NCBI GenBank assembly: GCA_964016885.1
Contig: CAXHJY010000838.1
Span: 54,599-118,598 of the forward strand
DNA length: 64,000 bases
Source: Eledone cirrhosa
Lineage: Eukaryota
Direction: 5' to 3'
The notes beneath the pieces are model-generated. The model made no database searches. It saw only the letters and a list, made by a program, of their open reading frames with translations, and was not told where the DNA came from. Both the position numbers and the translations under genes were made by a program. Of this stretch, positions 22,401-64,000 are shown in pieces; positions within the stretch are counted from its first letter, which is position 1, and each line of letters opens with the position of its first letter.

Positions 22401-22748
22401 GGAGGCACATGGCTTAGTGGTTAGAGCATTGGCCTTGCAATCGAAAGGTTGTGAGTTCAATTCTCAGACCAGGTGATGTGTTGTTTCCTTGAGCAAGAGA
22501 CTTTATTTCACATTGCTCCAGTTTACTCAGCTGTAGAAATGAGATGATAGGGAATGGGGTCTCTATCATTCCACTGCAAAGTGGTCGTGGAGGTGCCACG
22601 GCAAAAAAGCACCCAGCACTCACTGTAAATGAGGTTGGTGTTAGGAAGGGCATCCAGCTGTAGAAATCAAGCCAGAATCAGTTCCCGTCCCACCCTTGCA
22701 AGCAGGGAAAAGCGGATGTAAAATGAAATGAAATGAAATGAAATGAAT
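22401..22748 (+). mobile_element. composite SINE (S2): tRNA head + CORE-like domain + RTE-derived 3' tail, inserted in (TA)n
   Basis: A-box TGGCTTAGTGG, B-box GAGTTCAATTC, CCTTGAGCAAGAGACTTTATTTCAC. The 3' ~110 nt are near-identical to the 3' UTR of the RTE at 23562-24476. (AAATG)n tail. Confidence 0.9.
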
Positions 22749-23561
22749 GCATATATATATATATATATATATATATACATGCATATATATATATATATAC
22801 ATGCGTATATATATATATATATACATGCATATATATATATACATATACATGCATATATATATACATATACATGCATATATATATATACATATACATGCAT
22901 ATATATATATACATATACATGCATATATATATATACATATACATGCATATATATATATACATATACATGCATATATATATATACATATACATGCATATAT
23001 ATATATACATATACATGCATATATATATATACATATACATGCATATATATATATACATATACATGCATATATATATATATATACATATACATGCATATAT
23101 ATATATACATATACATGCATATATATATATATATACATATACATGCATATATATATATACATATACATGCATATATATATATATATATATATATACATAT
23201 ACATGCATATATATATATATATACATATACATGCATATATATATATACATATACATGCATATATATATATATATACATATACATGCATATATATATATAT
23301 ATATACATATACATGCATATATATATATATATACATATACATGCATATATATATATACATGCATATATATATATATACATATATACATATACATGCATAT
23401 ATATATATACATGCATATATATATATATACATGCATATATATATACATATACATGCATATATATATATGTATATGTATATATATACATATACATGCATAT
23501 ATATATATATATATGTATGTATATGTATATATATATATATATGCATTATATATATATATAT
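22749..23561. repeat. imperfect TA array with ~24-bp higher-order unit (TA)nCATATACATGCA
   Basis: Regular ACATATACATGCATATATATATAT units, clearest at about 22860-23060. Confidence 0.95.
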
Positions 23562-24476
23562 ATCATCATCATCATCATCACCGTTTTACGTCCGTTCTTC
23601 CACGCTAGCATGGGTTAGACGGGTTGTCCTGTTGTGGGCAGTGTCTGGTCGGCTGACCATGCCTTGCTCATACAGGAACTGATCTGGCTTGATTTCTACA
23701 GCTGGATGCCCTTCCTAACACCAACCTCATTTACAGTGAGTGCTGGGTGCTTTTTCGTGGCGCCTACACGTCCACTTTACAGTGTGGGCTGGGTGCTTTT
23801 TTGCCGTGGCACCTCCACGACCACCTTGCGGTGGGGGGGGGGGGGGCATATTGTTTATATGCTTCAGCATGTACCCATGGGAGGTCGGGTACCCTGTATT
23901 ACTGCGTGACGCCAGAAGTCACGGTCGTGTGTCATTGACTTTGAGAGGTGTAGTTGGGTAAGGTCGGCTTTTATCACCTCATCCCAAGTCATCTTGGGTC
24001 TCCCCACTCCGCGGTTTCCATCAACTTCTAGTGCTCTGCACCTTTTTATGCAGCTGTCATCCTTCATACGCATCACATGTCCATACCAGCGTAACCGCCT
24101 CTCCTGCACGCAGCATTTGATTCCTCTTATGCTCAGTCTCTCTCTCAATTCATTTATGCTTTGTCGTTCACGTATATTACTGTTACACATCCATCGGAGC
24201 ATGCAGGCTTCGTTTCTCTCTAATCTACGTAAGTCTTCCACCTTCAGCGCCCAGGTCTCACTACCATGCAACATCGCTGTTCGGATACACGCATCATACA
24301 GTCTGCCTTTCATTCTGAGGGAGAAGCCTTTTGCAGCTAGCAGTGGTAGTAGTTCCCTAAACTTCTTCCATCCCGTTCTTACCCTAGTTATTGTACTTTC
24401 TGAGCACCCACCTCCGTTGCTAATTCGGTCACCTAGGTAGCAGAAGCTGTCTACTGTTTCTACAGGGCCCTCCCAT
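23562..24476 (-). mobile_element. 5'-truncated RTE LINE (family A): RT C-terminus, 3' UTR and (GAT)n tail
   Basis: Uninterrupted frame [14 protein letters not shown]...[12 protein letters not shown]...MLHGSETW...[11 protein letters not shown]...GRPKMTW...DRDFWR, stop at 23864. TA arrays on both sides. Confidence 0.95.
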
Positions 24477-25476
24477 GTATGTATATGTATATATATATAT
24501 ATACATATATAATGCATATATACATATACATATATAATGCATATATATATATATATATGTATGTATATGTATATATATATATATATGCATGTATATGTAT
24601 ATATATATATATGCATGTATATATATATATATATACATATATAATGCATATATACATATACATACATATATATATACATTGCGTACCGTTTTGTACCACA
24701 GATGCGATCTCACCCTGCCTCGTTAATGTCCTATCGACACCAAAGTTCAACGTTTGGGCAAATAGAATTGAATCCAACCACCAACAACATAGCTGGATGA
24801 CCGATAATCACACCAAACCGGAGTACTGTGATCCCTGTGATTTCCAGATATACAACCACTGACACTGTTACGAAGACCAGAAAACCATACTCCATAATAT
24901 TGAACCAAGTGATTGATTTGTGCGACCAAAATAACACCACACACATATTGAATTAGGAATATTGGATCCTCCGTCAATGTCCGGGTGAGCAAAAATAGAT
25001 TCCTATCTGCATTGGAATTTACGAACTTGTGCATCTGCTGTGGTGTCAAAAACAAACGCGAATGACCGCACAGATAAACAATGAACCACGCCACGTGGCT
25101 TGAACCCGTAAGTGAATTGAAGGTTCTGCAACTCTGATACACAGATTATTTATTATTAAGATGTATAACCTTGACATAACTATTATCATCTTATATTCTC
25201 TCAACTAATCACACTTGATCATATTTCTCTATCCCGTTTTCTCCTCCCATAATTATTATATTTTTATTATTATTTGAAAAAAAAAATCAGTTTTTTTACA
25301 TTATTTTCCCTTCCAAATATTCGCTTATATTTCTTTATATATTCTCTATATATTTTTTTATCTTTATTATTTCCACTTTTATCCTCCTTTATATTTTACC
25401 TTATTCTTACTTTTATACCTTATTATAGTGTAATCTTCCTTATGCCTTATTATACACTATTAATTATAGATTATTA

Positions 25477-25668
25477 GGTGGATTGGCAGTATCGGTAGAG
25501 GGTCGGACGCCATGCTTTCCAGCAGAGTTACGTCCCTTTACGATCTGAGTTCAAATCCTGCCGAGATTAACTTTGCCTTTCATCCTTACGGGGTCGATAA
25601 AATAAAGTACCAGTAATGTACTGGGTATTTGCTGGCCTTGTGCCAAATGTAGAAACAATTATTATTAT
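25477..25668 (+). mobile_element. full-length tRNA-derived SINE (S1)
   Basis: A-box TGGCAGTATCGG, B-box GAGTTCAAATCC, central domain, (ATT)n tail. Confidence 0.92.
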
Positions 25669-60384: not shown

Positions 60385-61322
60385 TATATGTATATATATA
60401 TATATGTATATATATATATATGTATATATATGTATATATATATATGTATATATATATATATGTATATATATGTATGTATATATATGTATATATATATATG
60501 TATATATATATATATGTATATATATGTATGTATATATATGTATATATATGTATATATATGTATGTATATATATATATGTATATATATATATATATGTATG
60601 TATATATGTATATATATATATATATGTATATATATATATGTATATATATATATATGTATATATATATATGTATGTATATATATATATGTATGTATATATG
60701 TATATATATATATATGTATATATATATATGTATGTATATATGTATATATATATATATATGTATATATGTATATATATATATATATGTATATATGTATATA
60801 TATATATATGTATATATGTATATATATATATATATGTATATATATATATATATGTATATATATATATATATGTATATATATATATATATGTATATATATA
60901 TATATATGTATATATTTATATATATGTATATATATATATGTATATATATATATGTATATATATATATATATATATATATATATATATGTATATATATATA
61001 TATATATATATATATATATATATATATATATGTATATGTATATATATGTATATGTATATATATGTATATGTATATATATGTATATGTATATATATGTATA
61101 TGTATGTATATGTATATGTATATATATGTATATGTATATATATGTATATGTATATATATGTATATGTATATATATATATATATATATATATATATATATG
61201 TATATATATATATATATGTATATATATATATATGTATATATATATATATGTATATATATATATATGTATATATATATATATATGTATATATATATATATG
61301 TATATATATATATATGTATATA

Positions 61323-62069
61323 TTAAGCAGACTAGAGAGGAACGAAGCTTGCATGCTCCGCTGGATGTGTAACAGTAATATACGTGAACGGCAAAGCATA
61401 AACGAACTAAGGAAAAAATTAGAGATAAGAGGGATCAGATGTTGTTTACTCGAGAGAAGGCTACGTTGGTATGGACACGTGATGCGCATGAAAGTCGATA
61501 GCTGTATAACAAAGTGCAGGGCAATAAAGATAGACGGTAGTCACGGAATAGGCAGACCTAGAAAAACCTGGACGAGCTGATAAACTCCGACATCACACAC
61601 TTACACCTCTCCAAGACAATGTCACTGGACCGAGACCTTTGGCGGTACTCAGTAACAGAGAAGACCCGCCTTACCTAAATATATAGTAAAACCTACTCCA
61701 GCCAGTAGGCATCTCTAACAAAATACACCCCGTCCCACCACCACCACCCGATCCACACCACCCCGTTCTATGTAAAGTTATGTTGGTGCCGCGCCATCGA
61801 GGCCGAAACAAATGAGATCGTGTAGGTGTCACGACAAAAAAACACACAGTCCACGCTGTAATGTGGCCGTGTAGGCAACACGGTAAAAACCTCCCAGACC
61901 CACACTGTAAATGTGGTTGGTGTTAGGAAGGGCATCCAACTGTAGAAAACCTGCCAGACAGTCCTATGCGAGCAAGACAATCACTCTTGCCTCAAGTGGA
62001 CTACCCCGTCCAAACCCATGCAAGCGTGGAACACGGACGTTAAACGTTGATGATGATGATGATGATGAT
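61323..62069 (+). mobile_element. 5'-truncated RTE LINE (family B) with 3' UTR and (GAT)n tail
   Basis: [14 protein letters not shown]...[11 protein letters not shown]...GRPRKTW, then a 1-nt frameshift to [25 protein letters not shown]. Paralogous to family A. Confidence 0.93.
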
Positions 62070-63961
62070 ATATATATATATGTATATATATATATATGTG
62101 TATATATATATATGTATATATATGTATATATATATGTATATATATGTATATATATATATATGTATGTATATATATATGTATATATATATATATGTATATA
62201 TATATATATGTATATATATATATGTATATATATATATGTATATATATATATATGTATATATATGTATATGTATATATATGTATATGTATATATATGTATA
62301 TATATGTATATGTATATATATGTATATGTATATATATGTATATATATGTATATGTATATATATGTATATATATGTATATGTATATATATGTATATGTATA
62401 TGTATGTATATGTATATGTATATATATGTATATATATGTATATGTATATACTTGTATATGTATATATATATATATGTATATATATGTATATGTATATATA
62501 TGTATATGTATATATATATATATGTATATATATGTATATGTATATATATGTATATGTATATATATGTATATGTATATATATGTATATGTATATATATATA
62601 TATGTATATATATATATATATATATATATATATGTATATATATATATGTATATATATATATATATATATATATGTATATATATATATATGTATATATATA
62701 TATATGTATATATATATATATATGTATATATATATATATGTATATATATATATATGTATATATATATATGTGTATATATATATATATATGTATATATATA
62801 TATATGTATATATATATATATGTATATATATATATGTGTATATATATATATGTGTATATATATATATATATATATATGTATATATATATATATGTATATA
62901 TATATATATATATGTATATATATATGTATATATATATATATGTATATATATATGTATATATATATATATGTATATATATATATATGTATATATATATATA
63001 TATGTATATATATATATATATATATGTATATATGTATATATATATATATGTATATATGTATATATATATATATATATATATATGTATATATATATATATA
63101 TATATGTGTATATATATATATATATATATATATATGTATATATATATATATATATATGTATATATATATATATATATATATATATATGTATATATATATA
63201 TATATATATGTATATATGTATATATATATATATATATATGTATATATGTATATATATATATATGTATATATGTATATATATATATATATATATGTATATA
63301 TATATATATATATATATGTATATATATATATATATATATATGTATATATATATATATATATATATATATATGTATATATATATATATATATATATATATA
63401 TGTATATATATATATATATATATGTATATATATATATATATATATATATATATATGTATATATATATATATATATATATGTATATATATATATATATATA
63501 TGTATATATATATATATATATATATGTATATATATATATATATATATATGTATATATATATATATATATATATGTATATATATATATATATATATATGTA
63601 TATATATATATATATATATGTATATATATATATATATATATATATATATGTATATATATATATATGTATATATATATGTATATATATATATATATATATA
63701 TATATATATATATATATATATGTATATATATATATATGTATATATATATATATATATGTATATATATATATGTATATATATATATATATATATATATATA
63801 TATATATGTATATATATATATATATATGTATATATATATATATATATATATGTATATGTATATATATATATATATATATATATATATGTATATATATATA
63901 TATATGTATATATATATATATATATATGTATATATATATATATATATATATGTATATATAT

Positions 63962-64000
63962 ACACTAAAAGAGGAAGACCAAGGTTAACATATGTTGATG
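63962..64000 (+). mobile_element. start of another RTE family C fragment, cut by the window edge
   Basis: AAGAGGAAGACCAAGGTTAACATATGTTGAT matches 43309-43339 ([10 protein letters not shown]). Confidence 0.8.

Follow-up and report, generated by a model that had tools for sequence, protein, structure and literature searches.

Occurrence of CR1-group, RTE-type and putative Penelope-like retroelements at (TA)n arrays in a 64-kb region of Eledone cirrhosa: indications of a strong but incomplete target bias

Why do retroelements of several clades lie between runs of one and the same dinucleotide repeat? This question is raised by a 64-kb stretch of Eledone cirrhosa DNA (GenBank assembly GCA_964016885.1, contig CAXHJY010000838.1, positions 54,599 to 118,598 of the forward strand), here called the window and numbered from 1 to 64000. 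It is AT-rich animal DNA of which 20.6 kb consist of TA-derived arrays, and a first-pass annotation had reported that copies of CR1, of three RTE families, of the S2 short interspersed element (SINE) and of Penelope-like elements (PLEs) all sit inside TA microsatellites. The reading that we consider reasonably likely is that a CR1-group long interspersed element (LINE), the lineage formed by RTE-A, RTE-B and the S2 SINE, a further family termed RTE-C and Penelope-like elements insert by target-primed reverse transcription (TPRT) with a strong, incomplete bias towards (TA)n. The window holds about a dozen independent events and the counts are small; the families were grouped after their flanks had been seen. 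No host genes were noticed in the window, and no search was aimed at them. CR1, RTE, Penelope-like elements and tRNA-type SINEs are listed in two papers on octopus transposable elements (TEs) (PMC13282606; PMC8967140).

Every element listed in the first-pass annotation does adjoin TA (the CR1, RTE-A, RTE-B, RTE-C and S2 copies and the PLE-like ends were checked), and the three tails quoted there are present in the sequence; we conclude that the association is mostly real and had been overcounted. TA lies on both sides of 13 of the 19 CR1, RTE, S2, Penelope-like and zinc-finger insertions, as compared with none of 25 control insertions (12 S1 SINEs, nine MITEs, or miniature inverted-repeat transposable elements, two Rex-like copies and two S2-like heads; Fisher P=5e-7, for a grouping made post hoc). 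An explanation without any targeting would hold that the arrays fill half of the region, that islands within them are TA-flanked by definition, and that tolerance of insertions together with array-mediated duplication suffices. Indeed, 60 % of the insertable positions of 22401-64000 have TA on both sides, so that the association within the array blocks is partly circular; moreover, one CR1 copy is a local duplicate and the region was chosen for its pattern. We nevertheless regard this explanation as very improbable, since the control families are absent from the arrays (S1 SINE 0/12, MITE 0/9), though arrays offer 39 % of the insertable positions, and since the association persists where pure TA makes up 1.1 % of the DNA. 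In these TA-poor regions (900-22300 and 40520-54780; 35.7 kb), TA runs at least 10 bp long adjoin 5 of 21 recognisable LINE or SINE 3' ends, as compared with 1.6 % per site (binomial P=1.7e-5), one of the five matches (tail at about 42111) being only 30 bp long and chosen by eye; with clustered hits merged (3 of 24) P is about 0.002. The count of 21 leaves out the PLE ends, which would be circular, two S2-like heads, two S1 fragments with no recognisable 3' end and an old RTE-C-like copy at 49855, whose inclusion gives 5/22. For RTE and S2 alone, 5 of 10 tails in the TA-poor regions lie at TA runs; the flanking TA in these regions is short and of almost equal length on the two sides (14/22, 17/15, 16/19 and 15/11 bp).

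The copies of the RTE-A/B lineage and of S2 that carry TA at one or both ends are as follows.

22401-22750, plus strand: S2 SINE copy a, with a tRNA-like head (A and B boxes read by eye), a 3' part in common with the RTE-A untranslated region (UTR) and an (AAATG)n tail, with TA to the left and right.
23564-24477, minus strand: RTE-A, 5'-truncated, with an open end of an open reading frame (ORF) of 194 aa (66 % to a relative with reverse transcriptase (RT) and PHD finger) and a (GAT)n tail, with TA at either end.
38305-38680, plus strand: RTE-B 3' UTR fragment; TA on both sides.
41056-41216, minus strand: RTE-B fragment with TA on the 5' side only, in a run common with the next copy; the tail is possibly followed by decayed TA/CA.
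41235-41685, minus strand: RTE-B fragment between pure TA runs of 14 bp and 22 bp, in TA-poor surroundings.
43471-43781, plus strand: S2 SINE copy b, its left TA run common with RTE-C, with 11 bp of TA past the tail.
47245-47291, plus strand: RTE-B tail of 47 bp between TA runs of 16 bp and 19 bp.
61324-62067, plus strand: RTE-B with an ORF end carrying one frameshift and a (GAT)n tail, flanked by TA at both ends.

In a 342-nt stretch of ORF the identity between RTE-A and RTE-B is 76 %; S2 matches the RTE-A 3' UTR at 92 % over 117 nt, a match that reaches the RTE-B tail. Because this 3' end is shared, we infer that RTE-A, RTE-B and the S2 SINE form one mobilisation system, and S2 was discarded as an independent clade. 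The first-pass description of the clades as unrelated therefore stands for CR1, RTE-A/B, RTE-C and the Penelope-like elements, which remain separate, and fails for RTE-A, RTE-B and S2; about four independent enzymes are left. ARAGORN found no tRNA in the S2 head, and no tRNA was among the 150 Rfam matches listed, a list dominated by TA repeats. Fragments of RTE-A/B and RTE-C match single-ORF proteins with endonuclease and RT (EN-RT) and end in short-repeat tails; none of the matches is named RTE, and the label is used here provisionally, on the basis of motifs. Many RTE-A/B relatives have, just past the RT core, a PHD-like zinc finger that is possibly a chromatin- or DNA-binding module; its place is upstream of the truncation point of the window copy.

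RTE-C is represented by two fragments at TA.

43282-43455, plus strand: RTE-C 3' fragment (relatives carry RVT_1), with TA flanks of 17 bp and 15 bp.
63963-64000, plus strand: second RTE-C fragment, ending at the window edge, with TA on its 5' side.

Its matches are C-terminal parts of other RT proteins, and it forms a long separate branch in the tree. The two TA-borne copies reported earlier are thus one fully flanked copy and a second of which the window end shows the 5' side only.

The CR1-group copies, and the array units that bear on them, are listed next.

32053-32640, plus strand: CR1-group LINE 3' fragment of 588 bp; TA on both sides.
34955-35542, plus strand: CR1 fragment identical to the preceding copy, in the second unit of a 2902-bp tandem duplication.
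58781-58873, plus strand: four additional array units in which the first bases of the CR1 5' junction recur.
58874-60382, plus strand: CR1-group LINE, 5'-truncated, with a 475-aa open RT-containing ORF and two tail units; TA on both sides.

Three CR1 insertions had been counted, and here the count has to be lowered. The copies at 32053 and 34955 show 100 % identity along all 588 bp and have a common truncation point, and their flanks match exactly over 307 bp on the left and 108 bp on the right and are nearly identical over more than 1 kb. Since they share truncation point, sequence and flanks, they are, by sequence comparison, one insertion duplicated with its surroundings; this excludes three independent insertions and leaves two. 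The breakpoints of the 2902-bp unit lie within the flanking TA arrays. The apparent duplication as a whole spans about 31400-37200, where the units differ by almost no substitutions and by repeat-unit indels; it may be real or may have been made by the assembly. The 588-bp copies correspond, with one difference, to the 3' part of the copy at 58874-60382; short and long copies are probably independent insertions, as they differ in tail length and in array polarity, and both join TA at the identical tail position. Both CR1 insertions have TA on both sides (2/2), which is too few to speak of specificity. Pfam found RVT_1 in the 475-aa ORF (E=5e-32), and in a tree this ORF lies with EN-RT relatives (about 57 %) and bird CR1-like proteins (37-38 %), apart from the RTE sets, with support of 100/99; the tree contained no named L2, Crack, Daphne or Zenon references and places the ORF at the level of the CR1 group. 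Full-length relatives bear Exo_endo_phos, and the window copies are 5'-truncated.

Ends that we assign to Penelope-like elements were recognised by hammerhead ribozyme motifs, and one further insert by a zinc finger.

15836-16010, minus strand: Penelope-like end, hammerhead at 15944-15987, running into 40 bp of TA; 5' boundary approximate; outside 22401-64000, the interval first described.
21780-22060, minus strand: possible Penelope-like end, degenerate hammerhead at 22007-22045, running into 32 bp of TA; 5' boundary approximate; likewise outside that interval.
25737-26079, plus strand: Penelope-like end whose hammerhead core occupies 25995-26027, with TA to the left and right.
26256-26627, minus strand: degenerate, stop-ridden insert with one C2H2 finger; TA on both sides.
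28304-28436, minus strand: Penelope-like end of type I hammerhead layout, core at 28408-28431, stems I and III paired; TA on both sides.
41923-42045, minus strand: Penelope-like end, degenerate hammerhead at 42003-42027, running into 17 bp of TA; 5' boundary approximate.

The window contains three exact hammerhead cores as compared with 0.12 expected, and six by a relaxed scan. A TA run lies within 120 bp downstream of four of the six, as against 6.4 % expected (P=2.3e-4), and within 230 bp of a fifth; the ends at 15836, 21780 and 41923 sit in TA-poor DNA. The Penelope-like assignment is putative and read from these motifs, and the ends allow no finer clade label: Rfam gave no match for two of them, none of four candidate hammerheads reached a significant z-score when folded freely, a PLE ORF was not found in the window, and Pfam had no match for the stop-free segments of the ends. 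Two segments that look PLE-like by eye (54745-54829 and 54870-54907) failed both motif scans and were excluded from the counts. A homologue search with the C2H2 insert retrieved none, only generic C2H2 clusters being matched; the insert is unassigned and may be the C-terminus of an RTE. Two single-copy segments abutting TA runs, 24677-25170 and 52050-52464, are possible remains of old LINEs or PLEs; Pfam classified neither, 52050-52464 having no stop-free segment of at least 40 aa.

Could the flanks simply mark young copies, as the first-pass contrast of young elements inside and old elements outside the arrays implied? The identities within the window do not establish such a contrast. The four best S1 copies (886, 3803, 25478 and 40707), said to be older, are 95-98 % identical to their nearest copies, which is as close as the S2 pair (94.8 %) or the pair RTE-B1/B3 (95.1 %), and these young S1 copies lie outside the arrays. 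The degenerate zinc-finger insert, for its part, is TA-flanked all the same. With young TA-free S1 on the one side and this insert on the other, youth alone was rejected as a predictor, and to judge from the sequence TA flanks are better predicted by family identity than by age. Within RTE-A/B, youth may matter: copies without TA are 82-91 % identical to their nearest neighbour, whereas TA-flanked RTE-B copies reach 94-95 %; RTE-A has no close copy (best match 88 % over 43 bp), yet its ORF end is open. S1 copies bear short ATT-rich target duplications resembling their (ATT)n tail, clear in two cases and doubtful in the others. One S1 SINE is nested in a TTAA MITE (40521-40860) with an 8-bp target duplication. 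Pfam did not confirm the label of the supposed Jockey/I region at 19000-19900.

Whether the repeats preceded the elements or grew from them can be read in part from the arrays themselves.

22314-22400, strandless: short interrupted TA array to the left of S2 copy a.
22751-23563, strandless: TA array with a 24-bp higher-order unit and CA and TGCA interruptions.
26628-40511, strandless: very large TA block, interrupted with CA polarity and broken up by insertions of PLE, CR1 and RTE-B.
54908-63962, strandless: very large TA block, interrupted with TG polarity and broken up by CR1 and RTE-B; its longest pure TA run measures about 110 bp.

Pure runs inside the big arrays have medians of 5-15 bp, and 11 runs are at least 40 bp long. 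In the five arrays of the first block (26.6-40.5 kb) 854 interruptions read CA and four the opposite; in the three arrays of the second (54.9-64 kb) 331 read TG and six the opposite. This polarity is equal on either side of the inserts and independent of element strand, plus-strand CR1 and RTE-B copies being present in both blocks. Because the polarity matches on both sides whatever the strand of the element, the arrays should be older than the insertions, and one ancestral array per block, split later, would fit the pattern. The change from CA to TG falls between about 47 and 52 kb, which could reflect two ancestral arrays or a mutation bias linked to replication or transcription.

The order of events bears directly on microsatellite seeding, whereby an element would insert through tail microhomology at ordinary AT or TA sites, and its tail and the duplicated target would form a proto-repeat that expands on both sides in a genome prone to slippage. 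Tails of RTE and CR1 elements are documented as such seeds (PMC2887409; PMC6050309), empty sites of maize TAFTA with 6-8 bp of TA enlarge after insertion (PMC5907723), and growth after insertion is seen in the window as well: the extra upstream units at 58781-58873 carry the 5' junction bases of the CR1 copy, so the array must have grown after this very young insertion. The tails, however, are (GAT)n, (AAAGTT)n and (AAATG)n, none of them TA; TA is also found at arbitrary 5' truncation points; and array polarity ignores element strand; growth of the TA from the element tails was rejected. The old RTE-A/B copies, which have had longer to expand, are without TA. Seeding in its broader form is in our view quite unlikely. 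The first-pass proposal of a self-reinforcing niche fares better, as the arrays predate the insertions by their polarity, have grown afterwards by amplification of CR1-junction units, and contain the breaks of the CR1 duplication. An assembly artefact, in which contigs or reads joined through TA arrays created false adjacencies and the CR1 duplication, would account for a duplicated unit with no substitution in 588 bp and differences mainly in repeat-unit number, such as long-read error or two haplotypes could yield. Mis-joins cannot arise from TA flanks as short as the 11-22 bp seen in unique DNA, the tail register is consistent and the arrays have a structured higher order, and we give this explanation hardly any credence.

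How, then, would the elements reach the arrays? In the TPRT reading, an element nuclease would nick flexible TpA steps, two or three bases of the RNA tail would pair with the nicked TA strand and prime synthesis, and the target-site duplication would copy a short TA run to both sides. All LINE and SINE copies in TA with a visible 3' end have kept their tail, the LINE copies are 5'-truncated, and the (GAT)n tails in TA run in register into ATAT in six of six cases (1/64 under random phase). Short, nearly symmetric TA flanks are expected under this scheme, and those of the TA-poor regions therefore agree with a duplicated target. The sequence shows that the arrays, split by successive insertions, have gone on growing by duplication of interrupted units of 10-30 bp; exchange between arrays may delete inserts, such that old copies would be lost in arrays and persist in unique DNA.

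The other mechanism offered at first, passive capture, supposes that host structure-specific nucleases break (TA)n at cruciforms and that any retroelement ribonucleoprotein primes at the break or becomes patched into it. MUS81-type cleavage of (AT)n occurs in yeast and human cells (PMC12708500), integrase-less florendoviruses prefer (TA)n in plants (PMC4241990), and capture would readily explain why differing enzymes have one common target and why even the degenerate C2H2 insert is TA-flanked. It should be blind to family, though, and this is at odds with the absence of S1 and MITE copies from the arrays; the tails are intact and in register, and the four TA-poor targets measure just 11-22 bp, most pure runs in the big arrays being short as well. 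A family-encoded TA bias consequently fits better, given the missing S1 and MITE copies, the tail register and targets of 14-22 bp, and we favour TPRT biased to (TA)n over capture, which we hold to be unlikely, because tails are intact and in register, 5' truncations are present and the families are specific.

Several points weigh against TPRT with a TA bias. Two-sided TA is seen in 5 of 10 RTE-A/B copies, which falls short of strict specificity; the copies at 4333, 12011, 16299 and 45447 have no TA at either end (alternation at most 0.31), the copy at 41056 is flanked on one side, and the old RTE-C-like copy at 49855-50031 has none. The earlier statement that all copies sit inside TA therefore does not hold, and because four of the ten RTE-A/B copies and the old RTE-C-like copy have no TA we speak of a bias and not of strict specificity. 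As a two-base match cannot select runs that make up 1 % of the local DNA, a preference of the nuclease, or for a DNA structure, is needed in addition; the window contains no endonuclease domain, which makes the cleavage preference a prediction, and target-site duplications are unreadable inside TA. A regional mutation bias could produce the same polarity pattern as ancestral arrays. Finally, among 28 distant CR1-like loci (33-51 % identity; on contigs in prokaryote assemblies, short and often cut) a (TA)5+ run was found in four and a large array in none, so the trait is not general across the wider CR1 group. These loci in bacterial and archaeal genome records are most likely contamination from animal hosts. 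A motif scan of prokaryote assemblies for other genomic copies found none.

Among LINEs, Waldo, Mino, Kibi, Koshi and Dong belong to the R1, Tx1 and R4 clades. They are microsatellite-specific (ACAY, AC, TC, TTC and TAA, respectively) and insert into pre-existing repeats as the window elements appear to do; here the bias is incomplete, concerns CR1 and RTE, and has TA as its repeat, and no TA-targeting LINE is in the list of that paper (PMC3812793). The Naiad, Hydra and Neptune PLEs prefer (TA)n, where their target duplications are unreadable, and canonical PLE ends carry a hammerhead like the ends in the window; the latter are short and without an ORF, and Naiads lack canonical hammerheads (PMC8557442). 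This preference was thus already published, and the supposed convergence of unrelated clades comes down to some four enzymes. Overlap between tail and target is reported for CR1, L2 and RTE, and tail-guided site choice for RTE and its SINEs, in which microsatellite-like tails match the first target bases and SINE and LINE share a 3' end, as in the window; the signature there is a T-stretch plus one or two bases, as opposed to a two-sided (TA)n run (PMC6007223). Unrelated families strung along TA-separated arrays, with empty TA sites that expand after insertion, are known from SaTar, TAFTA, MuTAnT and Micron, which are plant Mutator-type cut-and-paste transposons and not retroelements (PMC5907723; PMC4486113). 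Florendovirus inserts are likewise TA-flanked at pre-existing repeats, but these viruses lack an integrase and are captured by repair, whereas the window elements have TPRT anatomy and are predicted to encode their own nuclease (PMC4241990). Snake CR1-L3/Rex and moth RTE copies lie beside abundant microsatellites too; in those cases the element's own 3' tail forms the repeat, which lies on one side, as opposed to an unlike repeat on both sides in the window (PMC6050309; PMC2887409). Full-text literature searches, with most subscription journals and Repbase Reports outside their scope, returned no report of CR1 or RTE targeting (TA)n, and the available parts of the two octopus TE papers are silent on it. 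A TA bias is known for Penelope-like elements and plant transposons, and the CR1/RTE case is not well documented.

Other repeats in the window include a 44-bp minisatellite of 18 copies at 1-808, derived from the end of a TTAA-flanked MITE family with at least six dispersed copies, and a diverged 32-bp minisatellite of about 19 copies at 7348-7970. A small palindromic MITE with TA-type ends occurs at 11056-11160, 45655-45719 and 52516-52621, the last copy about 13 bp after a (TA)19(CA)n run. An Rfam scan of the whole window was swamped by matches of TA to miRNA models, every row listed being under the gathering score.

More tentatively, CR1 and two RTE lineages may be TA-tropic independently of one another, beside the Penelope-like elements, with (TA)n as a shared landing pad for animal retroelements; split arrays would regrow to kilobases, exchange would duplicate and remove inserts, and this feedback would build mosaics and bias which copies survive. 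If the pattern is local or due to biased survival, the window would be an ordinary TE-rich microsatellite patch. If it holds genome-wide, microsatellite targeting would extend to two clades, CR1 and RTE, that are considered weakly selective, and a TA-seeking LINE would, if real, be a possible tool for safe-harbour insertion. TA-tropic and non-tropic families within one host would then provide natural pairs for telling apart the roles of nuclease, RNA tail and DNA structure, and a coupling of long TA arrays with recent insertions and with local duplications would follow, which would affect both the dating of TEs and the assembly of genomes of this kind.

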